Source of the DNA: Cupriavidus necator
GTDB taxonomy: Bacteria; Pseudomonadota; Gammaproteobacteria; Burkholderiales; Burkholderiaceae
DNA length: 32,000 bases
Assembly (NCBI RefSeq): GCF_016127575.1
Contig: NZ_CP066018.1
Location: forward strand, 2,640,001-2,672,000
Reading direction: 5' to 3'
The notes below the pieces were generated by a model that saw only the letters and a program-made list of their open reading frames with translations, did not search any database and was not told the origin of the DNA. Position numbers and translations under genes: made by a program. This document shows, piece after piece, positions 13,025 through 32,000 of the stretch. Numbering within the stretch: the first letter of the stretch is position 1; every line of letters begins with the position of its first letter.

Positions 13025-13042
13025 GGCGGTTGTGGTTGCGGT

Positions 13043-13285
13043 TCAGTCTTCTGCATCCTTGCCAGCGGCCTTGCGCGGCAGCCGCCCTAGCGGCTGCTCC
13101 TGCGGCATCACATGGCGGTTGCCCGGCAATCCGCCCGGGTAGTCGACGATGCGCGCGGTGTCCTGGCGCCGCAGGCCATGCCATGCCTGGCCGCCGGCGG
13201 TACGCCCGCCGCCCAGGATGGCGGTCATGGCCTGCCGGTCGAGATCCATGCTGTCGGGCAAATCCTTGATGACGATCACTGCCAT
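13043..13285 (-). CDS. GG-leader peptide precursor, divergent basic cargo (pepA4, my label)
   Basis: MAVIVIKDLPDSMDLDRQAMTAILGG|GRTAGGQAWHGLRRQDTARIVDYPGGLPGNRHVMPQEQPLGRLPRKAAGKDAED. The leader is in the same 26-aa register as its five paralogs (D8 L9, L15 D16, M20, I23, G25 G26). The same ccGGAGAc..ATG initiation region is used. Confidence 0.55.
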   Translation of the reverse strand: MAVIVIKDLPDSMDLDRQAMTAILGGGRTAGGQAWHGLRRQDTARIVDYPGGLPGNRHVMPQEQPLGRLPRKAAGKDAED

Positions 13286-13389
13286 GGCTGTCTCCGGTCA
13301 AGCGGCGCCACGGCCATGCGGCCGCGGGACCGCTTCAGTATAGGCGAGGCGGTCCGCGGTATTGCCCGCGGGGCCGCCGCGCGGTGCGC

Positions 13390-13662
13390 TCAGACTGCGG
13401 CGAAATTGCCGGCCCATTGCGACGGGTTGACGTTGACGCGCACCGGGCCGAAGTCGGGGCCGACGATGCTGTTGTTGAGCGTGTTGACGTTGATGCTCTG
13501 CAGCTGCGCGATGTTCTGGTTGACGTTGACGGTGACGTTGGCCAGCGGGCCGACGCTGCCGACACCGCGGCTGAGCCACGAGTTGCCGCCGCGTACGGCG
13601 CACAGCGAGGCACGGTCGAGTTCTTTGCTCAGGGCGAGATCGCGGACGAGGATCGATGACAT
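13390..13662 (-). CDS. GG-leader peptide precursor, divergent Asn/Val-repeat cargo (pepA3)
   Basis: MSSILVRDLALSKELDRASLCAVRGG|NSWLSRGVGSVGPLANVTVNVNQNIAQLQSINVNTLNNSIVGPDFGPVRVNVNPSQWAGNFAAV. Good RBS (aaaggagcaccaccATG). Leader in the family register. Confidence 0.7.
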   Translation of the reverse strand: MSSILVRDLALSKELDRASLCAVRGGNSWLSRGVGSVGPLANVTVNVNQNIAQLQSINVNTLNNSIVGPDFGPVRVNVNPSQWAGNFAAV

Positions 13663-13696
13663 GGTGGTGCTCCTTTGAGTCGGGTGCCGGGGGCGG

Positions 13697-13728
13697 CTGG
13701 CGCGGAGATTGCAGCATCTGCGCGCCAG
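13697..13728 (-). other. Strong intercistronic hairpin between pepA2 and pepA3 (13-bp stem, one mismatch, 6-nt loop; no U tract)
   Basis: Plus strand: ctggcgcggagat-tgcagc-atctgcgcgccag. Confidence 0.4.
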
Positions 13729-13744
13729 CAGTGGCCAGGGCGTA

Positions 13745-14014
13745 TCAGCCGAAGATGTTGTTGGTGGCGTTCTGGTTGGTGTGCACGTCGGACTTGACGT
13801 GGTCCAGGAAGGCCGAGCCGTTGCCGTTCAGGTTGGTCACGGTCTGCATCTGCGCGATGCTTTGCGTGGCGTTGATGCTGTTGTCCAGCGACAGCCTGAT
13901 CGGCGTGTAGACGGCGGCGAAGGGCAGGTAGGCCAGGCCGCCGCGCACGGCGTGCATGCGCTTGCTGTCGAGGGTTTCGGCGGCGGGCAGGTCCTTGATG
14001 GTCAGCGTGGTCAT
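13745..14014 (-). CDS. GG-leader peptide precursor (pepA2)
   Basis: MTTLTIKDLPAAETLDSKRMHAVRGG|LAYLPFAAVYTPIRLSLDNSINATQSIAQMQTVTNLNGNGSAFLDHVKSDVHTNQNATNNIFG. 89 aa; hydrophobic residues at -4, -7, -12 relative to the GG. Confidence 0.8.
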   Translation of the reverse strand: MTTLTIKDLPAAETLDSKRMHAVRGGLAYLPFAAVYTPIRLSLDNSINATQSIAQMQTVTNLNGNGSAFLDHVKSDVHTNQNATNNIFG

Positions 14015-14068
14015 GATGGTCTCCGGTATCGGTCAGTGCGTGGGTGTGGGTGGCTGGGGCGCGTGGGC

Positions 14069-14338
14069 TCAGCCGTAGATGTTGTTGCTGGCGTTCTGGT
14101 TGGTATCCACATGCGAACGGACATGGTCCAGGAAGGCCGAGCCGTTGCCGTTCATGTTGGTGACGGTCTGCATCTGGGCGATTTCCTGCACGGCCTTGAT
14201 GCTGCTGTCGAACGACAGCTTCACCGGGCTGTAGACCGCGGCGAACGGCATGTAGGCCAGGCCGCCGCGTACGGCGTGCATGCCCTTGCGGTCCAGGGTT
14301 TCGGTGGAGGACAGGTCCTTGATGGTCAGCGTGGTCAT
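14069..14338 (-). CDS. GG-leader peptide precursor (pepA1)
   Basis: MTTLTIKDLSSTETLDRKGMHAVRGG|LAYMPFAAVYSPVKLSFDSSIKAVQEIAQMQTVTNMNGNGSAFLDHVRSHVDTNQNASNNIYG. First gene behind the sigma54 promoter. SD-like GGAG lies 7 nt before the ATG. Confidence 0.8.
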   Translation of the reverse strand: MTTLTIKDLSSTETLDRKGMHAVRGGLAYMPFAAVYSPVKLSFDSSIKAVQEIAQMQTVTNMNGNGSAFLDHVRSHVDTNQNASNNIYG

Positions 14339-14417
14339 GATGGTCTCCGGTAGAGGAAGGTACTGCCTTGGGTCTGGTTTCGAGCATCGGGTTGGTGTCG
14401 CGCTCGGGAGGTACTAA

Positions 14418-14433
14418 CGCAGGGACTGTGCCA
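14418..14433 (-). promoter_or_regulatory. Sigma54 (-24/-12) promoter of the pepA1-A4 operon
   Basis: The minus strand reads caTTGGCACAGTCCCTGCGTTag, i.e. TGGCAC-N5-CTGC with correct GG-N10-GC spacing. It is ~95 nt upstream of the pepA1 ATG and near-identical to the element at 19493-19508. Confidence 0.75.
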
Positions 14434-14464
14434 ATGCCGTTGCCGGTCCCGACCAGTCACGCGC

Positions 14465-14483
14465 AACTGCCTGAAAACACGGG
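14465..14483 (-). promoter_or_regulatory. Conserved upstream element (candidate enhancer/UAS or IHF-type site) of the sigma54 promoter, copy A
   Basis: Minus strand CCCGTGTTTTCAGGCAGTT, 31 nt upstream of TGGCAC and preceded by the A/T-rich gaaaataaat. It matches 17/19 with copy B at the same spacing. Confidence 0.35.
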
Positions 14484-14665
14484 CGATTTATTTTCGATGT
14501 CGGCTTGCGGGCACTGGCTGCGGGCGCTGCCGCATGCTACGGGTGACGGGCCGCGGCCAACAGGCGGCGTGCCGGTGTTGGCGCGGCCGCGACAGTGGCG
14601 CGCCAAAGGCGATGCGATTGGCAGGGGGCGCCCGCGCGCGGCGTTGCACGCCGGCTTCGCATGGT

Positions 14666-14694
14666 TTGCGCATGCCTTGGGTGCGCACTAGTAT
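14666..14694 (+). promoter_or_regulatory. Candidate sigma70 promoter of the kinase gene (TTGCGC-17 nt-TAGTAT)
   Basis: tTTGCGCatgccttgggtgcgcacTAGTATcc, ~50 nt upstream of ATG 14747. Confidence 0.3.
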
Positions 14695-14746
14695 CCATCT
14701 CGAAGGCAGGCATATCCGCATCGTGGGATGCGCCGTGCCAGCAACC

Positions 14747-16798
14747 ATGTCGGGGCATCCGGTGGCCAGTCTCAAAGAACTGATCCGCAAGTTCCAGAAC
14801 GGCGGTCTCTCCGACGACGAGTTTGTTGCGTCGTTCGAAACGGCGCTGGCGCAGGATCCCACCACGCCCAGCCAGGCCGCGCGCGTGGTCATCGAGGAAA
14901 ACACGCGCTTCCCGTTCCCGCCCGCGGTCTATGCCGAAGTCATGCGGCGCATCGAGCGCCGCGGCGCCACGCAGTACGACGGCGCCACCGAGGCCACGCG
15001 CCTGGCCGGCACGCAGACGGGCTCGCTGTATGCGACCTCGCCCGAGCCGGGCACGCTGCCGCAGGCGGCGCATACCAAGGGCGTGGGCGATACGCTGAAC
15101 GGCCGCTTCGTGCTGGAAGAATGCCTGGGCGTGGGCGGCATGGGCACGGTCTACAAGGCGCTCGACCTGCGCAAGCTGGAAGCCTCGGACCGCAAGCCCT
15201 ATATCGCCATCAAGGTGCTGAACCTGCAGTTCAGCGGGCACCCCAAGTCGCTGATGGCGCTGCAGCGCGAGGCGCGCAAGGCGCAGACGCTGGCGCACCG
15301 GAATATCGTCACCGTCTATGACTTCGACCGCGACGGGCCGGTGGTCTTCCTGACCATGGAATACCTGTCAGGCTCTTCGCTCAACCATGTGCTCAAGGCC
15401 CCGGGCTTCACCGGCATGCCGATGGCGCGCGCCATGTCGATCATCAACGGCATGGGCAATGCGCTGGCATACGCGCACGAGCGCGGCTTCGTGCACTGCG
15501 ACTTCAAGCCCGCCAACGTCTTCCTGACCGCCAACGGCGAGGTCAAGGTGATCGACTTCGGCATCGCGCGCGGCTTCCTGCCGCCGGCCGACGAGTCCGA
15601 CCGGACCGTGTTCGATCCCGGCTCGCTGGGTGGCATGACGCCAGCCTACGCCAGCCCGGAGATGTTCGACCATTGCGAGCCCGACCCGCGCGACGACATC
15701 TTTGCGCTGGCCTGCGTGACCTATGAACTGCTGACCGGCAAGCATCCCTACCAGCGGCTCTCGGCCAACCAGGCGCGCGATGCCGGGCTCAAGCCGGCGC
15801 AGCCGCCGCAGTTGAGCCGCACGCAGTGGAAGACCCTGCGCGAGGCGCTGTCGCTCGACCGCGAGACACGCACGCCCACCGTCGCGCGCTTCCTGCATGG
15901 CATGAGCGCGGTGCCGGTGGTGTCCACGCGGCGCCCCTCGCCGCTGATGGCAGGCGGCGCGCTGGCCGTGCTGGCGGGCGTGTCGGCGATCGGCTACTAC
16001 GCCTGGCATTCGCAGCGCCAGGCCGAAGCACCGGCTGGCGATGCGCGCGTCGAGGCCCCGGCTACACCGGTGCCCGCAGCGCCGGTCATCCCGCCCGCAC
16101 CGGCTGCCCGCCCGGCGGTGCTGTCGATGGCCGACGTCACGAAGATGCTGGCCGCGGTGCCGTGCTCGCTGCTCACCGCCACCCAGCAGGCGCAGACGTT
16201 GCGTGTGCGTGGCTTCCTGGCCGAGAGCGTCGGCGCCGTGCGGCTGCGCGAGCAGCTCAGCGCGTTGCCGGGCGTCAAGGAGCTCAAGGGCGTGTCGATC
16301 GACACCCAGCCGCTGGCCGCCGACAAGTGCGACGTGGCCACCCTGATCGCGCCGTACTGGTCGGGCCACCGCGAAGGGGGCACGGCTTCGTCGCTGCGGC
16401 TGCGCGGCCAGGGCACGCAGCTGACCGAAGGGTCACCGCTGGTGCTGGATCTGCGCACGCCGGCGCGCGACTCCTATGTCTATGTCGATTACTTCGCGGC
16501 CGACGGCAAGGTGGCGCACATGGTGCCGAGCGCGCGCGTGCCCGCCCACCAGGCGCCGCCCAGCCATGGCGCCACGGTTGGCGACGGTGGCGACTGGATC
16601 ATCTCCGGGCCGTTCGGCACCGAGCTGGTGGTGTTGCTGACCACGCCCGCGCCGCTGTTCGATGGCCGGCGCGCCGAGGTCGAGCTGCACAAGGACTACC
16701 TGAAGGCACTGGAAAAGCCGCTGGCGCAGATGGCGCGCACCTATGGCCGGGACCGCATCAGCGCGGACCTGGTGCAGATCTCCACGCGCGCGCGCTGA
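14747..16798 (+). CDS. Transmembrane Hanks-type Ser/Thr protein kinase (non-RD) with a periplasmic DUF4384-like C-terminal domain
   Basis: Track ORF 14534..16798 trimmed to ATG 14747 (MSGHPVASLKELIRKF...); GTG 14723 is an alternative. GVGGMGTVYKA, IAIKVL, HCDFKPANVF (HRD->HCD), VIDFGIA, TPAYASPE. TM segment LMAGGALAVLAGVSAIGYYAW. C-terminal SYVYVDYFAADGKVAHMVPS...ELVVLLT resembles DUF4384. Confidence 0.9.
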   Translation: MSGHPVASLKELIRKFQNGGLSDDEFVASFETALAQDPTTPSQAARVVIEENTRFPFPPAVYAEVMRRIERRGATQYDGATEATRLAGTQTGSLYATSPEPGTLPQAAHTKGVGDTLNGRFVLEECLGVGGMGTVYKALDLRKLEASDRKPYIAIKVLNLQFSGHPKSLMALQREARKAQTLAHRNIVTVYDFDRDGPVVFLTMEYLSGSSLNHVLKAPGFTGMPMARAMSIINGMGNALAYAHERGFVHCDFKPANVFLTANGEVKVIDFGIARGFLPPADESDRTVFDPGSLGGMTPAYASPEMFDHCEPDPRDDIFALACVTYELLTGKHPYQRLSANQARDAGLKPAQPPQLSRTQWKTLREALSLDRETRTPTVARFLHGMSAVPVVSTRRPSPLMAGGALAVLAGVSAIGYYAWHSQRQAEAPAGDARVEAPATPVPAAPVIPPAPAARPAVLSMADVTKMLAAVPCSLLTATQQAQTLRVRGFLAESVGAVRLREQLSALPGVKELKGVSIDTQPLAADKCDVATLIAPYWSGHREGGTASSLRLRGQGTQLTEGSPLVLDLRTPARDSYVYVDYFAADGKVAHMVPSARVPAHQAPPSHGATVGDGGDWIISGPFGTELVVLLTTPAPLFDGRRAEVELHKDYLKALEKPLAQMARTYGRDRISADLVQISTRAR

Positions 16799-16843: not shown

Positions 16844-18067
16844 CTACTTCATGTCGCGCGCCACGCGAAAGCCGTTCTGCGACTGCCGCACGCTGGGGCT
16901 GTACTTGAAGCGCGTGGACGACACCATGTAGTTCGCCCCCTCGCGCCAGGAGCCGCCGCGGATCACGCGTGCGCCGCAGGCGTTCTCGTTCCATACGCGC
17001 CCGTCGGCGGGCGCGCCCTTGTATGAGCTGTGCCAGCAATCGGCCACCCATTCCCACACGCTGCCGTTGACGTCGTGCAGGCCGTACGGGTTGGCCGCGA
17101 ATGTCCCGACCGCGGCCGGCGCATCCTGGCTCCATGGGTCGCCGCAGTCCTTGCAGTTGGCATTGCCCTTGCGCATCTGGTCGCCCCACCAGTAGGCACT
17201 GGCGGTGCCGCCGCGCGCTGCGTATTCCCATTCGGCCTCGGTGGGCAGCCGGTAGGACTTGCCGGTGGTCTTGCTGAGCCAGGCCACGTACTGCTGCGCG
17301 TCGTCCCAGCTGACGTCGCGCACCGGCGCGTTCTTCGCGCTGTCGGCGACGGTGGGGACGCGCTGGCAGCCGCCGGCGTCGGCGCAGGCATTCCATTGCT
17401 CGACCGTGACCTCATAGCGGCCGATGGCAAACGGCTGGCCGATGGTGACGTGGTGCGGGGGCTTCTCGGCGGGATCGCTGGCACTGCTGCCCATGGTGAA
17501 GCTGCCCGCCGGCAGGGGGACCAGCACCGGGCAGGCCGGGCAATCGCGGATCTCGCCGGTGCGCAATGTGGCGCTGACCGCGCCGCCCGCCGCCGCGCCC
17601 GGGCGCAGCGATGCCGTTGCCGGTGGCGCAGCAGGTGGCGCAGCAGGTGACGCAGCGGGCGGCGATGCCGGACGCGCTGCCGCGGCCGGTGCCGGCGGCC
17701 GCGTGACCTGGCCCCCGGCAGAGGTGCCGGAGCGGGGCGGCGGTGCGGGCGCCTGGGCCTTGGGTGCGGAGGCGGACGCCGCCAGCCGCTCCAGGCGCGC
17801 CCTGGCCAGCACCGCGAAGCGTCCGTTGGGGTACTGCTTCAGGTAGGCCTCGTAGTCGCCGGCATAATTGCTGTTCTTGATCGATTCCCAGAAGCTCAGC
17901 TCGTACTGCTCCTCGGTGTTCTTGGGCATGATGCCGGCGAGCAGCAGCGGTTCCGTGGCCGCGGGGCCGGCGGCAGCGGCGGCCGCCTGCGCGGGCAGCG
18001 GCGCGGCGGCGAGCATGGCGGCCATGGCGGCCGTGCGTACGACTGGTAGATTGCGCCACATCTTCAC
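16844..18067 (-). CDS. Secreted FGE-sulfatase-fold (SUMF1/EgtB/PvdO family) protein with an N-terminal helical module and a Pro/Ala linker
   Basis: Signal peptide [58 protein letters not shown] module. FGE domain: [76 protein letters not shown]. Confidence 0.85.
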
Positions 18068-19492: not shown

Positions 19493-19508
19493 TGGCACGC
19501 TCCCTGCG
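19493..19508 (+). promoter_or_regulatory. Sigma54 (-24/-12) promoter of pepB1-pepB2
   Basis: gcTGGCACGCTCCCTGCGAT: TGGCAC-N5-CTGC with GG-N10-GC spacing. The ~69-nt leader to ATG 19588 is highly similar to the pepA1 leader (cctcc.gagcgcgacaccaacccgatgctcga...ccttcctctacc.ggagaccatcATG). Confidence 0.75.
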
Positions 19509-19587: not shown

Positions 19588-19857
19588 ATGACCACGCTGA
19601 CCATCACCGACCTGACCACCGTCGACACCCTGGACCGCAAGGGCATGCTCGCCGTTCGCGGCGGCCGCACCCTGCTCCCGTTCATGCCGGTGTACCACCC
19701 GCTCAACCTGTCGTTCGACCACAGCATCACCGCCGTGCAGGAAATCGCGCAGATGCAGACCGTCACCAATATGAATGGCAACGGCTCGGCCTTCCTGGAC
19801 CACGTGAAGTCCGACGTGCACACCAACCAGAACGCCACCAACAACATCTACGGCTGA
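19588..19857 (+). CDS. GG-leader peptide precursor (pepB1)
   Basis: Track ORF 19315..19857 trimmed to ATG 19588. MTTLTITDLTTVDTLDRKGMLAVRGG|RTLLPFMPVYHPLNLSFDHSITAVQEIAQMQTVTNMNGNGSAFLDHVKSDVHTNQNATNNIYG. Confidence 0.8.
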   Translation: MTTLTITDLTTVDTLDRKGMLAVRGGRTLLPFMPVYHPLNLSFDHSITAVQEIAQMQTVTNMNGNGSAFLDHVKSDVHTNQNATNNIYG

Positions 19858-19904: not shown

Positions 19905-20174
19905 ATGACCACGCTGACCATCAAAGACCTGTCCGCCACCGAAACCCTCGACAGCAAGCGCATGCATGCCGTGCGCGGCGGCCTGTCGTACCTGCCCTTT
20001 GCCGCCGTGTATGCGCCGATCAAGCTCGCGTTCGACAGCAGCATCACCGCCAAGCAGGAAATCGCGCAGTTGCAGTCCGTGACCAACCTGAACGGCAATG
20101 GCTCGGCCTTCCTCGACCATGTCCGTTCGCATGTGGATACCAACCAGAACGCCAGCAACAATATCTATCGTTGA
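19905..20174 (+). CDS. GG-leader peptide precursor (pepB2)
   Basis: MTTLTIKDLSATETLDSKRMHAVRGG|LSYLPFAAVYAPIKLAFDSSITAKQEIAQLQSVTNLNGNGSAFLDHVRSHVDTNQNASNNIYR. Confidence 0.8.
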   Translation: MTTLTIKDLSATETLDSKRMHAVRGGLSYLPFAAVYAPIKLAFDSSITAKQEIAQLQSVTNLNGNGSAFLDHVRSHVDTNQNASNNIYR

Positions 20175-20194: not shown

Positions 20195-20229
20195 AGCGCC
20201 GCGGGGGCGTCCCCGCGGCGCTTTTGTTG
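20195..20229 (+). terminator. Rho-independent terminator/attenuator between pepB2 and the NodT gene
   Basis: agcgccgcgggg-gcgt-ccccgcggcgct followed by tttgttg. Confidence 0.6.
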
Positions 20230-20358: not shown

Positions 20359-21822
20359 GTGCCTGAATCCATCACTGCCTCGCCCGCGGTTGCGTCAACC
20401 GCCGCGCCGCACCGTACCGCCTGGCTGGCCGCGCTGGCCGCCTGCGCGGCATTGCTGGCAGGCTGCGCCGATTTCCGGCCGCCGGTGTACCAGCGCCCGG
20501 AAACCCCGGCCAAGGCCGAATGGACGCGCCAGGAATCGATCACGGTATCGCCGGCCGAAACGGTGCAGCCCAACTGGTGGCTGGGCTTCAAGGATCCTTA
20601 CCTGAACAGGCTGATCGACCAGGCGCTTTACGGCAACTACGACATCAAGGTGCTGGCGGCGCGCATCCGCGTGGCCAACGCGCAGATCGGCGAGGCCCGT
20701 GCCGGCGGGCTGCCGGTGATCGATATCGGCGCCGGTGCGAGCTTCGAGAAGAGCACCGGGCAGAAGTCCACCTGGACCTATAACGCCGGCGCCCAGCTGA
20801 ACTGGGACATCGACATCTGGGGCAAGGTCGAGAAGGGCGTGCAGGCGCAGACCGCCGAGTTCCGCGCCACCGAGGCCGACTGGCGCGCCGGCTACCTGAC
20901 GCTGGTGTCCAATGTATCGACCACTTACTTCCAGATCCTGCAGTTCGACGAGCAGATCGAGCAGCAGGCGCGCACCGTGGCCAAGAACGGGCAGATCCTG
21001 TCGACCTACCAGGCCATGTACCAGAACGGCCTGGTGCCAAAGATCCGGGTGATGCAGCAGCAGGCGGAAATCAACCGCCTGAACAAGGACCTGCTGGAGC
21101 TGCGCCGTTCGCGCGATGTGGCTGAAAACGCGCTGGCCACGCTGGTCGGTGTGCCCGCGGGCAATCTCAAGGTGCCGGCGGGGCGCCTGCAGGACCGCGT
21201 GCAGCCGCCCGCGGTGCCGGCCGGGCTGCCGTCGCAACTGCTGGCGCGCCGCCCGGACGTGGTGGCGGCGGAATACCGCGTGCTGGCCGCGTACAACATC
21301 GTTGGCCAGGCCCGTTTGGCGCAGTTGCCCACCATCAGCCTGACCGCGCGCGGCGGCACCGCCAGCTTTGCGCTGAGCGACCTGCTCAAGTCATTCACCT
21401 TCGGCTTCATGCCCAGCATCAACCTGCCGATGCTCGACCCGAGCGTGCGCGCGCGCGTGAAGACCACCGAGGCGCAGGTGGGCGTGGCGGAAAACGAATA
21501 TGGCCGCACCGTGATGACCGCGTTCGAAGAGGTGGAGAGCGCACTGGTCAATGTCGACGCGCACAAGAAGCAGCGCATCGAGCTGCAGCAGCAGGTTGAG
21601 CAGCTGCGCGTCGTGTCCGCGCAGATCGAGGCGCAACTGAAGGAGGGCGTGGTCTCGCAGCTGGAAGTGTTCGAGACCGAGCGCTCGCTGCTGGCCGCGC
21701 AACTGCAGTTGTTGGCGGTCCACCAACAGATCCTGGCCGACACCGTCACCCTGTACAAGGCGCTTGGCGGTGGCTGGCCCGATACCGACGTGCGCAACGC
21801 GGCGTCGAATCCGCCGCAGTAA
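20359..21822 (+). CDS. NodT-family (OprM/TolC-like) outer-membrane efflux lipoprotein
   Basis: Track ORF trimmed to GTG 20359 (aggaa RBS 5 nt upstream). Lipobox LLAGC|ADF. WWLGFKDPYLNRLIDQALYGNYDIKVLAARI is the typical NodT N-terminus. Two OEP repeats; ends LYKALGGGW. Confidence 0.85.
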   Translation: MPESITASPAVASTAAPHRTAWLAALAACAALLAGCADFRPPVYQRPETPAKAEWTRQESITVSPAETVQPNWWLGFKDPYLNRLIDQALYGNYDIKVLAARIRVANAQIGEARAGGLPVIDIGAGASFEKSTGQKSTWTYNAGAQLNWDIDIWGKVEKGVQAQTAEFRATEADWRAGYLTLVSNVSTTYFQILQFDEQIEQQARTVAKNGQILSTYQAMYQNGLVPKIRVMQQQAEINRLNKDLLELRRSRDVAENALATLVGVPAGNLKVPAGRLQDRVQPPAVPAGLPSQLLARRPDVVAAEYRVLAAYNIVGQARLAQLPTISLTARGGTASFALSDLLKSFTFGFMPSINLPMLDPSVRARVKTTEAQVGVAENEYGRTVMTAFEEVESALVNVDAHKKQRIELQQQVEQLRVVSAQIEAQLKEGVVSQLEVFETERSLLAAQLQLLAVHQQILADTVTLYKALGGGWPDTDVRNAASNPPQ

Positions 21823-21956: not shown

Positions 21957-21984
21957 TTGACTAGCCTTTGCCGTCGCCTACTAT
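21957..21984 (+). promoter_or_regulatory. Candidate sigma70 promoter (TTGACT-16 nt-TACTAT) of the FHA-HlyD-PPIase-ABC-EBP operon
   Basis: gaTTGACTagcctttgccgtcgccTACTATgttc, ~65 nt upstream of ATG 22049. Confidence 0.4.
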
Positions 21985-22048
21985 GTTCTTAGTCGCTTCA
22001 TCCCCTGGCCTGCCGCCGCGGCAGCCGCGCTGTTGGCTTGCTGGAAAC

Positions 22049-24658
22049 ATGGCTCCTGACGAAGCACTGATCATGGAAATGCCGGTGAAAATGGCCCAGG
22101 GATTCACGCGGGAATTCTCTCAGGATCTGGCGCAGGAATTCGATGTGTTCCTGACGCCCGTGTCGCGCCCGGAGCTGGGCGAGATCCGCATCGACGAAGA
22201 CCTGTTCGCCGTCGGACGCAGCGAACTGCCGTTCGCCGCCTACCCCGAAGACCTGGCCGCACCGCTGTCGCGCCGGCATGCGCGCATCTTCGCCGAGCAT
22301 GGCGCGGTCTATGTGGCGGATCTCGGCAGCAAGAACGGCACGCGCGTGAACGGCGCGGCGGTGGCGCGCCAGCCGGCGCAGCTCAGCGATGGCGATGAGG
22401 TGGCCTTCGGGCCGGCGCTGTCGTTCCGGGTCCGGCTGTCGCCGCGCGCGGCGCAGCCCGAGCCGCCGCGGGTAGCGGTGACGTTGGTGCCCGAGCGCGG
22501 CGATGTCGGGCTGCAGCCGCTGCACGTGGACGGCTTCCCCTACCTGATCAGCAAGGCCGACGACGCCTTCGCGCGCTACCGCGACAGCTATCCGCAGCAG
22601 GTCAACTACCTGTCGCGGCGCCACGCGCACGTGTACCTCAAGGGTGGCGTGCCATTCGTTGAGGACCTGGGCAGCACCAACGGCACCTTCGTCAACGGCA
22701 AGCGCCTGGCCGACCACGGCGTGCCGCTGGACGACGGCGACCTGATCGCCTTTGGCGGCAACCACTTTGTCTACAAGGTGCAGGTCCAGCACACCGGCGA
22801 CGGCGATGCCACCGCGACGCATTCGATGCTGCAGCCAGTCGCTGCGCCCGACACGCCGCCCGCATCCCAGGCTTCGCCCGTGCGCGACGAGGATGACCGC
22901 ACTACCTTTGTCGGTGCCGCCGATTCCTTCCTCGACATCTTCTGCGTCGACTATGCCGCGCAGCAGGACGACGAGGTCAACGCCGAGGCCGAGGCACAGG
23001 CCGCGGCGGCCACGGCCGCGCACGACGGCGCGCAGGCACGCCGCAAGCGCGGGCGTGCCGCGCTGCTGCTGGCCGAAGGTGCCAGGCAGTTCGGCCTGAA
23101 CGATTCCGTACGCACGCGGCGCGCGGCGCGATGGGGCGGCGCGTTGCTGTTGCTCGCGCTGCTGGCGGGGGCGGCCGTGTACTGGCGCGGTGCGCCGGAG
23201 CGCGAAGTGCAGGCGCTGTTTGCCGCAGGCGATCACGCGCGCGCGGCGCAGGCCGCCGACAACTACCTGGCGCGTCATCCCGGCGATGCCCAGGTGCAGG
23301 CCATCGGCACCGAGGCACTGATGCGTGCCGACGTGCCCGCTTTCGCCGCCAGGCTGAAGGCCGGTGATTTCAGCGGCGCCGATGCCGTGCTGGCCCGGAT
23401 GCGCAAGCTCAGCGCGCACAATGCCGATGCGCGGCCGCTGGTGGCGGAACTCGACTGGATCGGCCGGCTCGAACGCTTCACCGCGCAGCGCGGCGCCGAC
23501 ACGCCGATCCGCCTCTACACCGACGAGGCGCCGATCCGGCAACTGCTGGCGTACTGGAACCAGGACACCACCGCGCACCAGCGCGCGCTCGGGCGCATCG
23601 CGGCCGATGTGCCGGCGTTCCGCGATCTCTACGCCGATGCGCTCAGCGACGTGCGTCGCCTGCAGAACGACGCCTCGGTCTACCTGGCGGCGATCGACCG
23701 GCTGAACACCACCATTGCCGCCGAACTCGGCCGCGACCGCCCGGAGGCATTGCAGCCCGTCATCGCCGAGTACCGCGAGAAGTATCCGCGCCTGGCCGGG
23801 CTGGACCGCGTGCAGTCAGACCTGGACCGCTACACCGCGCTGATGCAGGCACTGCGCGCGCGCCGGCCCGGGCCGCTGGTGGCGCGCCTTGCCGACAGCC
23901 GCTTCGCCACGCCGCCGTTCCAGGCGCAGTTCAACCAACTGGCCGCGCGCCTGCCGCCGCCGGAGATGGTGCGCCAGTATGCCGGTGCGGCCAGGGCGTG
24001 GCAGCAGGGCGACAGCGCCGCAGCGCTCGCGGGGATCAAGCAGATCAGCGGCGGCCCCTGGGCCGAGGACCTGGCGCGCGACCTGTCGCACAAGCAGAAG
24101 GTGGCGGCGCAGTACGCCGAGCTGCAGTCCGCGCGCGGCAGCAAGGGCTATGAGGACCGGCTGCTGGGCTTCTACGCCATGCTCGATGCCGCCGATGACG
24201 GCCACTTCGCCAAGGCGGTCGAGGCCGACGTCAACGGCGTGCGCGACAGTGCCCTGCGGCGCGCGCGGGAACTGATGGGCAGCGCCGTCGCCGCATGGAA
24301 GCAATACCGCAGCAATGGCGTGATCGGCAGCGAGCAGCGGCTCGAGCCCGGCATCTCGCCCAGGTTCCGCGCGCAGGCCCGGTTGCTGTCGCAGGCACAG
24401 GATGACGCGCGCCAGGGCATGCGCATCTTCACGCAACTGCGCGCGGGCGAAAGCGCCGACCTGGCGCAACTCGCCAAGATCGAGGAAGAGATCCGCGCCG
24501 AGGCCGACCAGCAGCGGCACGCGCTGCGCGAGTTGCGCACCGTGCTCGATCCCGCCGTGCTCAAGACCAAGCTGGAGCTGATCGGCGGTGAAGACACCGG
24601 CAAGGCGCCGGAGCCGGCCGCGGCTGCCGCGGCGCCACAGCAAGCGGGGCAGCCATGA
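22049..24658 (+). CDS. Membrane-anchored double-FHA-domain protein with a large helical (TPR-like) periplasmic region
   Basis: Start ambiguous (ATG 22049, 22073, 22079 or 22091; 22091 has ggtga upstream). FHA1: VGRSELPF...LSRRHARIF...DLGSKNGTRVNG. FHA2: LISKADDAF...LSRRHAHVY...DLGSTNGTFVNG (G-R replaced by S-K). TM segment WGGALLLLALLAGAAVYW. The stop overlaps the HlyD ATG (ATGA, 24655-24658). Confidence 0.8.
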   Translation: MAPDEALIMEMPVKMAQGFTREFSQDLAQEFDVFLTPVSRPELGEIRIDEDLFAVGRSELPFAAYPEDLAAPLSRRHARIFAEHGAVYVADLGSKNGTRVNGAAVARQPAQLSDGDEVAFGPALSFRVRLSPRAAQPEPPRVAVTLVPERGDVGLQPLHVDGFPYLISKADDAFARYRDSYPQQVNYLSRRHAHVYLKGGVPFVEDLGSTNGTFVNGKRLADHGVPLDDGDLIAFGGNHFVYKVQVQHTGDGDATATHSMLQPVAAPDTPPASQASPVRDEDDRTTFVGAADSFLDIFCVDYAAQQDDEVNAEAEAQAAAATAAHDGAQARRKRGRAALLLAEGARQFGLNDSVRTRRAARWGGALLLLALLAGAAVYWRGAPEREVQALFAAGDHARAAQAADNYLARHPGDAQVQAIGTEALMRADVPAFAARLKAGDFSGADAVLARMRKLSAHNADARPLVAELDWIGRLERFTAQRGADTPIRLYTDEAPIRQLLAYWNQDTTAHQRALGRIAADVPAFRDLYADALSDVRRLQNDASVYLAAIDRLNTTIAAELGRDRPEALQPVIAEYREKYPRLAGLDRVQSDLDRYTALMQALRARRPGPLVARLADSRFATPPFQAQFNQLAARLPPPEMVRQYAGAARAWQQGDSAAALAGIKQISGGPWAEDLARDLSHKQKVAAQYAELQSARGSKGYEDRLLGFYAMLDAADDGHFAKAVEADVNGVRDSALRRARELMGSAVAAWKQYRSNGVIGSEQRLEPGISPRFRAQARLLSQAQDDARQGMRIFTQLRAGESADLAQLAKIEEEIRAEADQQRHALRELRTVLDPAVLKTKLELIGGEDTGKAPEPAAAAAAPQQAGQP

Positions 24659-26114: not shown

Positions 26115-26867
26115 ATGACTGGTATTGTGCGTATCGACGACGAGGTGCTTGGCTTCGAGGAGTTCGTGCGCTTGCTCAAGCTGACCGGACAGTTCGAAGG
26201 GCTGGTCGAGCAGATGGTGCGCGACAAGCTGACCGTGCACGCGGCAAAGCGGCAGGGCGTGGTGGTCACGCCGGAGGAGATCCAGGAACGCGCGGACCAG
26301 TTCCGCCGCGTGCAGGGCCTGCATCGCGCCGCAGACATGAATCACTACCTGGATGCGCTGAACATCAGCCTGGACGAATTCGAGGCCTTTGTCACCGACA
26401 GCCTGTACCAGGAGCGGATGATGGAGCAGGTGTGCAGCGAGGCCGCGGTGCAGGCGTACTTTGCGCTCAACTCGCCGCGCTTCGACAGCATCGAGGTCAG
26501 CCATATCGTGGTCGACAGCGAGGGCAAGGCCAAGGAGCTGATCTCGTACCTGCAGGATGATCCCGATGCCTTTGCCGAGATGGCGCGCGAGCATTCCATC
26601 GCCGACACGCGCGAGCGCGGAGGCGAGATCGGCAAGGTGCTGCGCGGCTCGCTCAAGACCGATATCGAGGCCAAGGTGTTCAATGCCGAGCCTGGCGACC
26701 TGCTGGGACCGTTCCCGTCGGCTGACCGTTCCTTCTTCGAAGTCTTCCTGGTGCGCGAAAAACACCCGGCCACCCTCGATAGCGAGGTGGCGGTGGAAGT
26801 GCGCCGCCTGCTGCGCGAAGACTGGCTGATGGCCAGGGCGCAGGAACATGTCATCGAAGCCCGCTAG
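26115..26867 (+). CDS. Cytoplasmic PpiC/parvulin-type peptidyl-prolyl cis-trans isomerase
   Basis: No signal peptide (MTGIVRIDDEVLGFEEF...). Rotamase domain SHIVVDSEGKAKELISYLQDDPDAFAEMAREHSIADTRERGGEIGKVLRGSL...EPGDLLGPFPSADRSFFEVFLV. The 3' end overlaps the ABC gene start by 20 nt. Confidence 0.8.
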   Translation: MTGIVRIDDEVLGFEEFVRLLKLTGQFEGLVEQMVRDKLTVHAAKRQGVVVTPEEIQERADQFRRVQGLHRAADMNHYLDALNISLDEFEAFVTDSLYQERMMEQVCSEAAVQAYFALNSPRFDSIEVSHIVVDSEGKAKELISYLQDDPDAFAEMAREHSIADTRERGGEIGKVLRGSLKTDIEAKVFNAEPGDLLGPFPSADRSFFEVFLVREKHPATLDSEVAVEVRRLLREDWLMARAQEHVIEAR

Positions 26868-29800
26868 CGCGAGCGGCGAGCCCGCCGCCCCGCCTGCCCC
26901 GGACCAGCCGGAGGCAGGATCGGCGCTGGCCGCCTTCCTCGCCACCGTCGAGATCCTGTCGGTGCTGGTGCCGGAGGAGCTGGCACGCCTGGCGGAAGCC
27001 GCGCAGGTGCTGACCTTCGGCTTTGGCGACACCGTCTGCAATGCCGGCGAAGCGGCGCCGGGCCTGTTTATCGTCAAGTCCGGCTCGGTGCGCGTGTTCA
27101 ACGAGGAGCACGGCAAGGAAATCAGCATGGGCGTGCGCAAGGCCGGCGAGGTCTTTGCCGATATCGCGCTGCTGCGCGACTACCGGCATGAGTCGTCGGT
27201 GCGCGCCTCGGGCAAGACCGAACTGCTGCTGATCCCGCGCAGCGTGGGCGAGCCGGTGGTGGCCGGCAACCCGGCGGCGCTTGCGTTTATCACCAGCTAT
27301 GTCGCGATCAGCTCGGCCGGCGGCTTTGTCGCGCGGCTGTTCGACCTGCGCGGCAAGCTCGACAAGCAGGAGCTGGAAGACGCCGTGCGCAGCGTCGGCG
27401 TCAAGCGCGTGGCGGCCGGCAAGGAGATCCTGAAGCAGGACGGCCGCGAAGACCGGCGCCTGTACGTGGTGCGCCAGGGCACGGTGCGCATCGTGCGCAG
27501 CGAAGAGGGCAGCGAGTACCCGCTGGCGACGCTGGGGCAGGGCGACATCTTCGGCGAGCGCGCCTGCGTGATGCGGCAGGAGCAGCTGGCCTCGGCCATT
27601 GCCGATACCGACGTGCGCCTGCTGGTGATTCCCGAGAAGACGGTGCAGCTGATTTTGGAGCGCAACCCGCGCCTGCGCGAGGTGCTGGAAGAGCGCATCC
27701 GCGTGCTGGACCGCGAGTTGCATCGGCAGAAGAAGCTGGCCGAACGGCGCAAGCGCCCGGTGCTGCTGGACCTGCATTCAAAGCCCGAGCTCGGCGAAAA
27801 GCTGATCCGCCGCTTCGCGCTGGTGGAGCAGGCCGAGGAGATGGATTGCGGCGCGGCCTGCCTGGCGATGATCTGCCGGCACTACGGCATCCCGATGACG
27901 CTGGGCAAGCTGCGCGAACTGGCCAATGTGACCACCCAGGGCGCCACGCTCGACAGCCTGGCGCGCGCCGGCGAAGCGCTCGGCTTCACCACGCGCGGGG
28001 TGCAGTGCACGCGGGATTCGCTGATGGGGTTCGAGCTTCCCTTCATCGTGCACTGGGAGGGGTACCACTACGTGGTGGTGTACGGGATCTCGTCGCGCTG
28101 GGTGTGGGTGGCCGACCCGGCCATCGGCTTCCGCAAGATGAGCGCCGAGGAGTTCGAGCGCGGCTGGAGCGGCACCTGCCTGCTGTTCACGCCGGGCGAG
28201 AGCATGACCCAGCTGTCGGTGTCGCGCTCGCCGTGGCTGCGCTTTATCGGCTACCTGGCGCCGTACAAGAGGATCCTGGCGCACCTGTTTCTGGCCACCT
28301 TCGTGATCCAGATGCTGGGGGTGGTCCCGCCGCTGATTATCCAGAACATCCTGGACGGCGTGGTGGTGCACCAGAACGTGGGGCTGCTGAACCTGCTGAT
28401 CGCGGGGCTGATCATCTCCAACGTGTTCTCGCAGCTGATGTCTACGATTCGCGCGTATCTGGCCAACTTCATGGTGCGCAACATGGATTTCGCCATGATG
28501 TCGCACTTCTTCAAGCACACGCTGTCGCTGCCGCTGTCGTTCTTTGCCAAGCGCAAGACCGGGGACATCTTCGCGCGCTTCCAGGAGAACCAGACCATCC
28601 GCGCCTTCCTGACCGAGTCGACCGTGACCACGGCGCTGAACCTGCTGATGGTGTTTATCTACTTCACCATCATGTTTCTCTACAACGTCAAGCTGACGCT
28701 GCTGCTGATCGCCTTCGTGATCCCGATCGCGGCGCTGACGGTGGTGGTGACGCCCAAGGTCAAGACCTATGCGCGCGAGGTGTTCGCGGCATCGACCGAT
28801 GCCAAGGCCTACCTGATGGAAACGCTGGGCGGCGCCGAGACCGTCAAGGGCATGGGCATCGAGCGCCCGGTGCGGCTGCGCTGGGAGCGCAAGTACGCCA
28901 AGGCGCTGGACGCGCAATACCGGGCACAGGCCTTCCACATCCTGGTGGGGCTGGTGAGCCAGCTGCTCAACGCCGCCACCACCATCGCGGTGCTGTGGGT
29001 GGGCGCGACGCTGGTGCTGGAGCGCGAGCTCACCATCGGCCAGCTGATCGCCTTCAATGCCTTCATGGGCAGCGTGCTGGCGCCGCTGATGGGGCTGGTG
29101 GCGTTGTGGGGCCAGCTCAACGATGCCGGCGTGGCGATGGAGCGCCTGGGCGACGTGCTCGACCTGGAGCCCGAGCAGAAGCCGCAGGACGTGCTGTCGC
29201 GCGTGATGCTGCCCGACCTGCAGGGCGAGATCGTGATGAAGGACCTGTACTTCCGCTACGGCGGCGAAGACACGCCCTATGTGCTGGAGAACATCAGCTT
29301 CGCCATCCGCCCTGGCGAGATGGTGGCCATCGTCGGGCGCAGCGGCTCAGGCAAGACTACGCTGGCCAAGCTGCTGGTGGGCTTCTACAAGCCTACCGAG
29401 GGCTCGATGACAGTGGACGGCTATGACCTGAACGTGATCGACGCGGCGTTCTACCGCGCGCAGGTGGGCTACGTGATGCAGTCCAACCTGCTGTTCTCGG
29501 GGACCATTGCCGAGAACATCGCCTGCGGCGACGACAGCCCGGACCGGCGCCGCATCGAGGAGGTGGCGCGCATGGCCGATGCCCACGCCTTTATCAGCAA
29601 GCTGCCGCTGGGCTACGAGCAGGTGGTGGGCGAGCGTGGTATCGGGCTTTCCGGCGGGCAGATCCAGCGCCTGTGCATTGCCCGCGCGCTGTACCACGAC
29701 CCGCGCCTGCTGGTGTTCGACGAGGCCACCTCGGCGCTCGACACGCAGTCAGAGAGCAACATCCTGGCGAATATGCAGGAGATCCTGCGCGGGCGCACCG

Positions 29801-29958
29801 CGGTCATCATCGCGCACCGGCTCAGCACCATCATGCAGGCCGATAAGATCCTGGTGCTGTATGAAGGCGCCATCGTCGAGCAGGGCCGGCATGAGGAGCT
29901 GATCGAGCGCAAGGGCATGTATTTCCAACTGGTGCAGAAGCAACTGAGCGCAGCATGA
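26848..29958 (+). CDS. Peptidase-containing ABC transporter (PCAT): 2 x cNMP-binding-like domains + C39 Cys-peptidase + 6-TM ABC domain + NBD
   Basis: 1036 aa. CNB-like 1 is about aa 30-140 and CNB-like 2 about aa 160-285. C39 domain: EEMDC(334)GAACLAMICRHYG, HWEGYHYVVVYG, WVADP (Cys/His/Asp present). NBD: GRSGSGKTT, LSGGQIQRLCIARAL, LLVFDEATSALD, IIAHRLS. Confidence 0.92.
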   Translation: MSSKPASASGEPAAPPAPDQPEAGSALAAFLATVEILSVLVPEELARLAEAAQVLTFGFGDTVCNAGEAAPGLFIVKSGSVRVFNEEHGKEISMGVRKAGEVFADIALLRDYRHESSVRASGKTELLLIPRSVGEPVVAGNPAALAFITSYVAISSAGGFVARLFDLRGKLDKQELEDAVRSVGVKRVAAGKEILKQDGREDRRLYVVRQGTVRIVRSEEGSEYPLATLGQGDIFGERACVMRQEQLASAIADTDVRLLVIPEKTVQLILERNPRLREVLEERIRVLDRELHRQKKLAERRKRPVLLDLHSKPELGEKLIRRFALVEQAEEMDCGAACLAMICRHYGIPMTLGKLRELANVTTQGATLDSLARAGEALGFTTRGVQCTRDSLMGFELPFIVHWEGYHYVVVYGISSRWVWVADPAIGFRKMSAEEFERGWSGTCLLFTPGESMTQLSVSRSPWLRFIGYLAPYKRILAHLFLATFVIQMLGVVPPLIIQNILDGVVVHQNVGLLNLLIAGLIISNVFSQLMSTIRAYLANFMVRNMDFAMMSHFFKHTLSLPLSFFAKRKTGDIFARFQENQTIRAFLTESTVTTALNLLMVFIYFTIMFLYNVKLTLLLIAFVIPIAALTVVVTPKVKTYAREVFAASTDAKAYLMETLGGAETVKGMGIERPVRLRWERKYAKALDAQYRAQAFHILVGLVSQLLNAATTIAVLWVGATLVLERELTIGQLIAFNAFMGSVLAPLMGLVALWGQLNDAGVAMERLGDVLDLEPEQKPQDVLSRVMLPDLQGEIVMKDLYFRYGGEDTPYVLENISFAIRPGEMVAIVGRSGSGKTTLAKLLVGFYKPTEGSMTVDGYDLNVIDAAFYRAQVGYVMQSNLLFSGTIAENIACGDDSPDRRRIEEVARMADAHAFISKLPLGYEQVVGERGIGLSGGQIQRLCIARALYHDPRLLVFDEATSALDTQSESNILANMQEILRGRTAVIIAHRLSTIMQADKILVLYEGAIVEQGRHEELIERKGMYFQLVQKQLSAA

Positions 29959-31299: not shown

Positions 31300-32000
31300 T
31301 CAGGCGTCCAGCTCGGGATTGACCAGGGTCTTGTCAGAGCCGTACGGGTCCGCCGCACGCAGCACCACCACCGACACGTTGTCGCGGCCGCCGGCATCGA
31401 GCGCCATCTGCACCAGCGTCGGCGCGGCCTGCGCAACGTCCTGCTGCGCCAGCACCGCCGCGATGTCGTCATCGTCGACCTCGTTGCTCAGGCCATCGCT
31501 GCACAGCAGGTACACGTCGCCATCGGCGACCTCGGTCAGCAGCTGCTCCGGCGCCAGCGTCGGGGCCGCGCCGACGGCGCGTGTGATGGTGTTCTGCGCG
31601 GGATGGTGGCGCGCTTCTTCCGGGGTGATCAGCCCGCGCGCCAGCAGGCGCTCGACCTGGTTGTGGTCGCGCGTGAGGCGCGCGAACTGGCCGCCGCGCA
31701 GCCGGTACAGGCGGCTGTCGCCGGCCCACACGCAGGCGCAACGGCGATCGCCCGCCAGCATTACCACCACCGTGCTGCCGATGCAGCGCACGCCCAGGCG
31801 CGCCGCTTCATCGACCAGCGCCAGGTTCACGCCCTGCAGCGCCGCGCGCGTGGCGTCGACCCGGTCTTCCAGCCGGGGCTGCGGCGGCAGCGTGGCCAGC
31901 GCCTGGACCACCGCCTGGCTGGCGAAGTCTCCCACGGCATGGCCGCCCATGCCGTCGGCCACTGCCCACAGGTCCTGGCTGGGCAGATCCAGGCAAGCGT
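31300..32000 (-). CDS. PP2C-family Ser/Thr protein phosphatase (5' end beyond the right edge of the window)
   Basis: The track ORF starts at M 31962, but the frame stays open to 32000 (..ACLDLPSQDLWAVADGMGGHAVGDFAS). The ADGMGGH motif is internal in PP2C enzymes. LLCSDGLSNEV and GGRDNVSVVVL are the C-terminal PP2C motifs. Confidence 0.85.
   Translation of the reverse strand, partial: ACLDLPSQDLWAVADGMGGHAVGDFASQAVVQALATLPPQPRLEDRVDATRAALQGVNLALVDEAARLGVRCIGSTVVVMLAGDRRCACVWAGDSRLYRLRGGQFARLTRDHNQVERLLARGLITPEEARHHPAQNTITRAVGAAPTLAPEQLLTEVADGDVYLLCSDGLSNEVDDDDIAAVLAQQDVAQAAPTLVQMALDAGGRDNVSVVVLRAADPYGSDKTLVNPELDA

Follow-up and report, generated by a model that had tools for sequence, protein, structure and literature searches.

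A large double-glycine leader peptide family tied to a distinctive, heavily regulated C39 exporter in Cupriavidus necator

Six small genes in two operons, found on a 32,000-nucleotide stretch of the Cupriavidus necator genome (contig NZ_CP066018.1, positions 2,640,001 to 2,672,000; hereafter the window), probably encode the unmodified precursors of one large peptide family, the cargo of a dedicated type I secretion system encoded in the same gene island. The data support a large, unannotated family with a double-glycine (GG) leader that is tied to a distinctive and heavily regulated ATP-binding cassette (ABC) transporter with a peptidase domain (PCAT); the export scheme itself is well known. 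Bacteria secrete their bacteriocins and peptide signals chiefly as GG-leader peptides, through ABC exporters that cleave them; for Gram-negatives, detailed knowledge is to our knowledge confined mainly to a few dozen microcins of enterobacteria. In the literature we found no paper on this locus, on the leader family or on the combination of components described here. The six peptide genes are:

13043..13285, minus strand: pepA4, 80 aa, type-3 precursor, leader MAVIVIKDL...AILGG followed by a short basic core with the ARIVDYPGGLPG motif
13390..13662, minus strand: pepA3, 90 aa, type-2 precursor, same leader as pepA1, core NVTVNVNQNIAQLQSINVNTLNN...
13745..14014, minus strand: pepA2, 89 aa, type-1 precursor, paralogue of pepA1
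14069..14338, minus strand: pepA1, 89 aa, type-1 precursor, 26-residue GG leader and 63-residue N/Q/S/T-rich core with a GNGSAF motif
19588..19857, plus strand: pepB1, 89 aa, type-1 precursor (CAJ93769)
19905..20174, plus strand: pepB2, 89 aa, type-1 precursor (CAJ93768)

All six open reading frames (ORFs) stand in the ORF list where the original prediction, made from the letters of the window alone, had placed them, four on the minus and two on the plus strand, and each has a GGAG-type ribosome-binding site 6–8 nt 5' of its ATG. The cargo classes claimed for locus A were recovered as well, with two 63-residue N/Q/S/T-rich cores, one Asn/Val-repeat core and one moderately basic core, and locus B adds two further N/Q/S/T-rich type-1 cargos. 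Proteins of the window match CAJ93763–CAJ93769 of C. necator H16, chromosome 1, exactly. Against their orthologues the genes show ratios of nonsynonymous to synonymous substitution (dN/dS) of 0.14–0.75, namely 0.14 for type 3, 0.23 for type 2 and 0.23–0.75 for type 1. For pepA1, which has orthologues in 14 loci, the value is ~0.4; for pepA3, with a counterpart at the same operon position in five related loci (L016, L017, L021, L022 and L023), it is 0.23; and for pepA4, whose orthologues with an RIVDYPxGFP-like motif occur in L016, L017, L021, L022 and L025, it is 0.14. We therefore conclude that all six, including the odd-looking 80-residue ORF, are real genes.

Residues 1–26 of the six peptides align without a single gap and end in GG, and the leader pattern first proposed fits all of them. 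D8, L9, L15, D16, A22, G25 and G26 are invariant, and the predicted hydrophobic positions are occupied by V or I at −4, M or L at −7 and L at −12. An exhaustive profile search covering 1.84 billion cluster representatives gave 534 clusters (50% identity) at E≤1e-3, of which 113 pass E≤1e-10; almost all have a length of 80–105 aa. A word-indexed search with the profile of the six peptides returned 528 relatives, chiefly from Cupriavidus and Pandoraea. Named members belong to Cupriavidus, Pandoraea, Paraburkholderia and Noviherbaspirillum, and the remainder is metagenomic. Profile searching, proposed as a check, uncovered a large family, well in excess of what chance would give, in which the GG falls exactly at residues 25–26 in 127 of 143 full-length representatives when positions are counted from the annotated Met and no pattern filter is applied. 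The spacing −4/−7/−12 holds family-wide (V 92%, M 91% and L 97%, respectively), and the family consensus reads M-[KST]-[TS]-L-x-I-[KR]-D-L-x-x-[TS]-x-E-L-D-x-x-A-M-x-A-V-R-G-G. RefSeq calls some members (the window products at 19588–20174 as well as P0002, P0003, P0014 and P0016) "STAS domain-containing protein"; Pfam gave no STAS match at E≤10, and the label looks like a misannotation.

The mean information content is 2.25 bits per position for residues 2–13, 2.58 bits for residues 14–24 and 0.59 bits for residues 27–40, so that the N-terminal half of the leader is indeed, as had been claimed, about as conserved as the half next to the GG. The abrupt loss of conservation past G26 would be the expected trace of a cleavage site. 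The further claim that the leader exceeds the classical length stood only in part, because a GG leader of 26 residues is not exceptional by its length; the unusual feature is that conservation continues past −13. For LahT150, C39 cleavage needs just the last 13–14 leader residues, and the co-crystal study showed V−4, L−7 and L−12 docked into the C39 groove (PMC6363468). The second conserved block of the present family spans residues 3–9 (T-L-x-I-K-D-L, −18 to −24), and its conserved L−23, I−21, D−19 and L−18 fall outside this published C39 footprint. A second reader for the N-terminal block, besides the C39 domain, is plausible on this ground.

The exporter and the other genes of the island are:

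14534..16798, plus strand: Hanks-type Ser/Thr kinase with a C-terminal DUF4384 region (Pfam); 14534 is the start of the longest ORF, the true start is probably near 14747
16844..18067, minus strand: FGE-sulfatase-domain (PvdO/TagR-like) protein with an N-terminal signal-peptide-like sequence
18203–18781 and 18784–19269, plus strand: two tandem DUF4399 proteins with signal-peptide-like hydrophobic N-termini
20359..21822, plus strand: outer-membrane factor, NodT-family lipoprotein (TIGR01845, 312 bits, above the cut-off); the GTG start at 20359 is probable, the longest ORF runs from 20098
21968..24658, plus strand: double-FHA inner-membrane protein, 896 aa, with two cytoplasmic FHA domains, one transmembrane segment (386–404) and a helical C-terminal region of ~490 aa
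24655..26037, plus strand: HlyD-family membrane fusion protein (Pfam/NCBIfam)
26115..26867, plus strand: PrsA/SurA-like parvulin protein (Pfam), 250 aa, no signal peptide
26848..29958, plus strand: PCAT, 1036 aa, with two cyclic-nucleotide-binding (cNMP) stretches, a C39 peptidase, an ABC transmembrane domain and an ATPase
29955..31271, plus strand: sigma-54-dependent activator (bacterial enhancer-binding protein; Pfam/NCBIfam)
31300..32000, minus strand: PP2C-type Ser/Thr phosphatase, the gene continuing past the end of the window

The PCAT shows the Pfam order PF00027 (two stretches), PF03412, PF00664, PF00005, and the catalytic residues of its C39 domain are intact (Q328, C334, H407 and D423), unlike those of HlyB, whose C39-like domain is inactive. 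Its gene lies 6.7 kb from the peptide genes and adjoins those for HlyD and the outer-membrane factor. The original assignment of the peptides as GG-leader substrates of a C39 ABC exporter thereby gains computational support from an intact PCAT, a HlyD protein, an outer-membrane factor and conserved synteny. In Cupriavidus, Pandoraea terrae and Paraburkholderia GAS42 we found one shared order, which runs pepA cluster, kinase, FGE, two DUF4399 genes, pepB cluster, outer-membrane factor, FHA, HlyD, parvulin and PCAT, read as far as the fetched stretches reach, each related locus covering part of it. Exceptions are L016, which has no pepB genes, and L020, which lost type-1 genes. The outer flanks (DEAD helicase, SenA) are not kept outside Cupriavidus, and given this conserved order within changing flanks the kinase, FGE and DUF4399 genes belong to the island. 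The kinase is syntenic in every related locus and also in the distant metagenomic locus L022, where two DUF4399 genes, FGE, kinase and peptide genes are followed by a second peptide array and a PP2C gene.

A search with the cNMP-C39 region of the exporter returned proteins of 53–77% identity in several lineages, with hosts among Oxalobacteraceae, Burkholderiaceae, Ramlibacter, Lysobacter, Steroidobacteraceae and several metagenome-assembled genomes (MAGs) of sulfur-oxidising gammaproteobacteria. We inspected five distant exporter loci (L024–L028; PCAT N-terminus 53–69% identical). In all five a parvulin gene lies immediately 5' of the cNMP-PCAT gene and a sigma-54 activator gene after or beside it; the upstream order outer-membrane factor, FHA or unknown protein, HlyD is kept in four, L027 retaining only the parvulin–PCAT pair. 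FHA, PP2C or kinase genes occur in three (L025, L027 and L028), while the exporter and activator genes of L024 and L026 have no kinase gene in their vicinity. In four of the five loci, leaders of the same type precede unrelated cargos, and none was found in L027:

L024: leader MLNIIVKDLEMSKELDKIAMMNIIGS, Cys-rich cargo
L025: leader MTSITFSDLPRSEVLDRKAMWSIRGA, unrelated cargo
L026: leader MTTLMTNDLTIGKELDRAALTNLTGG, 21-residue core
L028: leader MITIKDLEQSEELDQQAMRKVFGG, unrelated cargo

Because the leader type persists while the cargos are unrelated, the leader tracks the exporter subtype and not the cargo. This association is the strongest support both for one leader serving several cargos, a claim of the original prediction that these four loci and the three cargo classes of the window bear out, and for a system-specific reader of the extra block.

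The parvulin protein is our preferred candidate for that reader. Its gene is present in every related exporter locus examined, and the protein is always 250 aa long and 77–94% identical between Cupriavidus and Oxalobacteraceae. It lacks a signal peptide and is therefore predicted to be cytoplasmic. Its AlphaFold2 (AF2) model has a mean predicted local distance difference (pLDDT) score of 76, PrsA is the best Foldseek match (E=4e-11), and PrsA/SurA chaperones are the most similar proteins overall. The protein may read the N-terminal block of the leader or may keep the disordered N/Q-rich precursors competent for export. Its match to TIGR04500 ("putative peptide maturation system protein") is weak (84 bits, cut-off 180). 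MirC, a PpiC/SurA-like member of TIGR04500, is an obligatory chaperone-like partner in the PCAT-linked rosaritide graspetide pathway (PMC13097080) and resembles the window protein as a non-secreted, SurA/parvulin-like protein encoded beside a PCAT in a peptide cluster. In contrast to MirC, the window protein matches TIGR04500 only weakly and has a recognisable parvulin domain, and the island contains no ATP-grasp enzyme.

Both peptide operons are preceded by a sigma-54-type promoter, and a hairpin closes the second:

14419..14433, minus strand: pepA promoter, −24/−12 element TGGCACAGTCCCTGC, 95 nt 5' of the pepA1 ATG
19493..19507, plus strand: pepB promoter, −24/−12 element TGGCACGCTCCCTGC
20195..20222, plus strand: terminator-like hairpin, 12 bp with a T tail, 3' of pepB2

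The motif TGGCAC-N4-CCTGC has two exact copies in the window against 0.13 expected, each 95 nt upstream of the first gene of an operon. The −24 GG and −12 GC recur 5' of every peptide operon in the Cupriavidus loci, with variants in L016, L017 and L021–L026, and the activator gene follows the PCAT gene in L024, L025, L026 and L028, or lies beside it on the opposite strand in L027. Together, the recurring promoter elements and the conserved activator make sigma-54 control of both peptide operons a well-supported prediction. Two further elements were seen near these promoters. A conserved inverted repeat CGAGC(N13–16)GCTCG lies at the predicted +1 of both transcripts (14381–14406, minus strand; 19520–19545, plus strand) and is present in distant loci too; translated, it appears as "ERDTNPML" where the N-terminus of a homologue was called too far upstream. 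The repeat folds as a 5-bp hairpin, shows no compensatory changes across loci and gave no Rfam match in a search of 12400–20500; it may form a hairpin at the 5' end of the mRNA or be a palindrome to which a protein binds. In all Cupriavidus loci a conserved block AAAAACCCCnTGTTTTCAGGCA (14468–14490 in plus-strand coordinates, and 19437–19458) precedes each −24 element by ~50–70 nt and may be an integration host factor (IHF) site or an activator-binding site.

The island also encodes a set of phospho-threonine signalling domains, with Pkinase, PP2C, two FHA and FGE-sulfatase domains. Kinase, FHA and FGE-like genes are syntenic in the related loci; kinase and FGE-like genes recur in L022 with PP2C nearby, and kinase, FHA and PP2C genes recur in L025. 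The FHA gene is kept beside HlyD in L025 and L028, and the PP2C gene follows the activator in the window and in L025. In L027 the activator (13117–14463) carries its own N-terminal FHA domain, with a Hanks kinase gene 2.5 kb away, and this arrangement would tie phospho-threonine signalling directly to sigma-54 activation in this system family. Both DUF4399 proteins carry two motifs suggestive of metal binding, an invariant G-H-H-H-L-L-V-D and, as the second, H-L-H-F-G. In the window, L016, L017 and L022, DUF4399 is found together with the DUF4384 kinase, the FGE-like protein and type-1/2 cargo, but it does not accompany the L025 system.

The threonine phosphorylation pathway of type VI secretion systems (T6SS), in which PpkA, PppA, Fha1 and TagR act (PMC5995506, PMC6082577), resembles the island in combining a Hanks kinase that has a predicted extracytoplasmic C-terminal region with PP2C, an FHA protein whose gene accompanies those of the secretion machine, and a periplasmic FGE partner. 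Unlike in the T6SS, the module is here attached to a type I (ABC) exporter, the FHA protein is bitopic with two FHA domains, and a link to sigma-54 is proposed; no T6SS families were found among the Pfam matches of the large ORFs of the window. The likeness is one of analogy, not of membership.

On the observed genes, conserved leader, intact catalytic residues, promoters and synteny we build the following scheme. Each of the two peptide operons would be transcribed from its sigma-54 promoter, activated by the enhancer-binding protein of the island. The 26-residue leader would direct the precursor to the ABC exporter, whose C39 domain would dock V−4, M−7 and L−12 and cut after G26, and the mature peptide of 54–64 residues would leave the cell through the HlyD adaptor and the NodT outer-membrane factor. 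The leader would be specific to one exporter subtype, made up of the cNMP-C39-ABC protein with a cytoplasmic PrsA/SurA-like protein and a sigma-54 activator, and the block of residues 3–9 would be read by a system-specific partner before or during loading, most likely the PrsA/SurA-like chaperone, with the cNMP domains as the alternative. Export and/or transcription is probably gated by threonine phosphorylation, involving the Hanks kinase (C-terminal region predicted periplasmic), PP2C, the double-FHA protein and the periplasmic FGE-like and DUF4399 proteins.

Several points weigh against this reading. None of the six peptides matches a curated GG-leader model: the comparison with TIGR01847 and PF10439, proposed earlier, and with PF03047 and similar models gave no match at E≤10, and Pfam and NCBIfam as a whole gave no relevant model at this threshold, only noise from SAF and MAG6790 at E~0.1. 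The PCAT stays below the equivalog cut-offs of every named PCAT family in NCBIfam (564 against 853 bits for TIGR03796/03797). The classical GG consensus, reportedly given by Havarstein et al. in 1994 as L-S-x-x-E-L-x-x-I-x-G-G, in which −8 is Glu and −15 is hydrophobic, is not fully kept: position −8 is Ala in 73% and Glu in 9%, −11 is Asp in 86%, and −15 is T, S or A and not hydrophobic. What ties the kinase/FHA/PP2C module to the exporter is conserved linkage. No immunity-like small membrane-protein ORF lies in or between the peptide operons, which weakens the idea of a bacteriocin taken up below. Finally, synonymous divergence (dS) among Cupriavidus orthologues is lower in the leader (0.05–0.22) than in the core (0.14–0.45), so the 5' conservation of close paralogues may partly reflect gene conversion or constraint on the mRNA.

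This last point also feeds the alternative that we take most seriously, namely that the N-terminal half is conserved with no second recognition at all, either because a longer amphipathic helix sits at the same C39/transmembrane entrance or because translation initiation or gene conversion constrains the 5' end. It is possible, if doubtful. Beyond the low leader dS, the paralogues hardly differ over their first 27 nt, and the hydrophobic positions −18, −21, −22 and −23 could lengthen a helical face. However, the 79 distinct leader DNA sequences use several synonymous codons per conserved residue (L9, for example, is CTG, CTC, TTG or CTT), and these varied codons together with the dN/dS of 0.14–0.75 place the selection on the protein. 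The block is moreover retained in loci with unrelated cargos and nucleotide sequences, the last 13–14 residues are enough for a C39 domain (PMC6363468), and the low-confidence AF2 helix covers residues 17–24 only. Some gene conversion or mRNA-level constraint is likely among the close Cupriavidus orthologues, and we continue to regard a second reader of the leader as a plausible explanation of the N-terminal block. One candidate for that reader was rejected: FHA docking on a phosphorylated Thr at leader position 3 (T-L-x-I) fails as a general mechanism, since this position is Thr in only 62% and Ser in 23% of the representatives.

The cores fall into three classes, which keep the fixed operon order type 1, type 2, type 3 in the window, in L016 (Pandoraea), in L017 (Paraburkholderia) and in the metagenomic loci L021 and L022:

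Type 1, one to three genes per operon: ...Q.I.Q.Q.V.N..GNGSAF...Q.A.NN.
Type 2, one gene per operon: NVNVNQNIAQLQ.INVN.LNN...
Type 3, one gene per operon: short basic core with an RIVDYPxGFP-like motif, behind the slightly different leader MA.I.IKDL...AI.GG

Types 1 and 2 follow a common, conserved C-terminal plan and vary most in the ~15 residues that follow the putative cleavage site. The cores are low in charge, rich in N/S/V/A/G/Q/T and almost devoid of Cys (0.5%). The AF2 model of pepA1, computed from a 79-sequence alignment, reaches a pLDDT of 54 with a helix at residues 17–24 only, and a profile search of the PDB with the peptide family matched no solved structure. A likeness to curli, with NGNGSAF set against the GxGNSA motif, was dropped after hhalign gave a probability of 0.3% against CsgA.

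Short basic cores share the motif R-I-V-D-Y/W/F-P-x-G-F-P. The type-3 genes are:

Window: 13043–13285, minus strand
L016: 11096–11314
L017: 10840–11070
L021: 1168–1362
L022: 4952–5158
L025: 16231–16437

The persistence of type 3 in L025, where the other cargos are unrelated, suggests a role at the level of the system, possibly as inducer or adaptor. Type 1 behaves differently in C. necator A5-1 (L020, 3128–3802 and 9953–10132), where both locus-A genes are gone and the locus-B copy is truncated to 59 aa, while types 2 and 3 and the complete exporter are retained; type-1 genes are therefore dispensable and prone to loss. A Noviherbaspirillum MAG (L023, 10001–11348) carries three type-1 genes and then one type-2 gene, with no type 3, in a neighbourhood unrelated to the island, between a GGDEF/EAL regulator and propionate-catabolism genes. 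The exporter is not nearby, and satellite cargo arrays therefore exist.

As to function, our leading guess is that the mature peptides are secreted antagonistic, bacteriocin-like peptides, with the short basic type 3 possibly an inducer. They could instead build an extracellular assembly, such as an amyloid-like fibre or matrix, with type 1 as the major and type 2 as the minor subunit and type 3 as an accessory, exported unfolded by the type I system after the PrsA/SurA-like chaperone has kept them soluble in the cytoplasm. We hold this to be rather unlikely. The constant operon order across genera with one to three type-1 copies, the composition of the cores, the strongly conserved C-terminal halves, the lack of a stable monomer fold in the AF2 model and the dedicated cytoplasmic chaperone-like gene would all suit such an assembly, but the peptides are related neither to CsgA nor to any solved structure, they have no internal repeat units, a nucleator or anchor component is not recognisable, and in one strain (L020) the type-1 genes are missing or truncated.

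Sigma-54 control and a possible inducer peptide recall, in outline, the com/blp/pln peptide quorum circuits of Gram-positive bacteria. One may speculate about an undescribed class of regulated type I systems in Burkholderiales and related soil proteobacteria, in which the leader would be read twice (N-half by the chaperone, GG-half by C39), a Hanks/PP2C/FHA switch together with a nucleotide ligand of the exporter would gate export and sigma-54 transcription, and the kinase would sense secreted type-3 peptide as the inducer, as a Gram-negative equivalent of com/blp/pln, while types 1 and 2 would kill competitors or assemble outside the cell. Taken as a whole, this proposal is unlikely. So, to a slightly greater degree, is the circuit on its own, in which a type-3 autoinducer would act on the extracytoplasmic domain of the kinase and from there, via FHA/PP2C and the sigma-54 activator, on the peptide operons and the exporter. 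The kinase gene does lie between the two peptide operons and is still linked in distant loci, RIVDYPxGFP-type peptides persist in L025 while the other cargos differ, and a sigma-54 activator is found in every locus, fused to FHA in L027. Against it, L024 and L026 have exporter and activator with the kinase not nearby, and no type-3 peptide was found in L023, L024 or L026. Very improbable is a role of the peptides as precursors of peptides synthesised ribosomally and modified after translation (RiPPs), altered before export by the FGE-like enzyme or the parvulin, for instance, because the FGE-family enzyme within the island and the weak TIGR04500 match of the parvulin (84 bits, cut-off 180) are set against an island with no LanM, radical-SAM, YcaO, ATP-grasp or other RiPP enzyme, an FGE-like protein whose signal-peptide-like N-terminus would make it periplasmic, almost Cys-free cores and no NHLP or Nif11 match among the six peptides. 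Export of unmodified precursors, with antagonism as the leading guess, is the reading that we keep.

Compared with known systems, the island resembles those of class II microcins and bacteriocins (colicin V with CvaAB-TolC, PCAT1-CtA, ComAB-ComC) in its GG leader with hydrophobic −4/−7/−12, its catalytic C39 ABC exporter with membrane fusion protein and outer-membrane factor, and its tandem small precursor genes. Class II microcins have a signal sequence of 15–18 aa, an adjacent immunity gene and antibacterial activity (PMC12219008). The island differs in its leader of invariably 26 residues with a second block at −18 to −24 and no match to a GG-leader hidden Markov model, in the lack of an immunity gene, in N/Q/S/T-rich cores of three conserved classes, and in its dependence on sigma-54, the two cNMP domains of the exporter and the FHA, parvulin, kinase and phosphatase genes. 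An experimentally established cNMP-C39-ABC exporter is HetC of Nostoc PCC 7120, whose cNMP domain is needed in vivo and binds ppGpp in vitro (PMC10986499). HetC shares with the window PCAT a cyclic-nucleotide-binding domain N-terminal to a catalytically competent C39-ABC core, but the latter has two cNMP stretches, and its gene adjoins those for HlyD and an outer-membrane factor, while no membrane fusion protein gene lies close to that of HetC; the substrates of HetC are unknown and those of the window PCAT identifiable, and lineage and regulation differ. NHLP/Nif11 systems (precursors TIGR03793/03798, exporters TIGR03796/03797, HlyD TIGR03794) likewise combine one GG-ending leader family and diverse cargos with a PCAT and HlyD, and their exporter and HlyD models are the second-best NCBIfam matches of the window proteins. 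The leader of the island, 26 aa long, is however not homologous to nitrile hydratase or Nif11, the scores fall below the equivalog cut-offs (72 against 156 bits for the HlyD protein), and modification enzymes are missing.

The family of more than 500 sequence clusters lies outside current domain libraries, and its near-invariant export tag can be used directly as a handle for genome mining. The exporter subtype unites features not described together before, namely two nucleotide-binding domains, a cytoplasmic PrsA/SurA-like partner, a double-FHA membrane protein, a eukaryote-type kinase/phosphatase pair and sigma-54 control. Should the N-terminal block serve to dock a chaperone, leaders in type I secretion would be recognised in two steps, and C. 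necator H16, a host used in biotechnology, would gain a portable secretion tag. Gating of export by the phospho-threonine module, if confirmed, would carry the logic of type VI secretion over to type I systems.

Two neighbouring gene pairs of the window deserve mention. At 7726–10224 on the plus strand, the gene of an EgtD-like histidine methyltransferase (Methyltransf_33) precedes that of a synthase resembling SenA/EgtB, for a sulfoxide or selenoneine; the synthase scores 368 bits against NF041186 (cut-off 420), and this ergothioneine/selenoneine-type pair flanks the island in Cupriavidus. Further upstream (2965–5002) lie darP (yjgA), minus strand, and pmbA (TldE), plus strand. A part of PmbA/TldD in the processing of microcin B17 is known, but we rejected it as a processing factor here, since its gene (3635–5002) is placed outside the syntenic island and most likely is a housekeeping neighbour.

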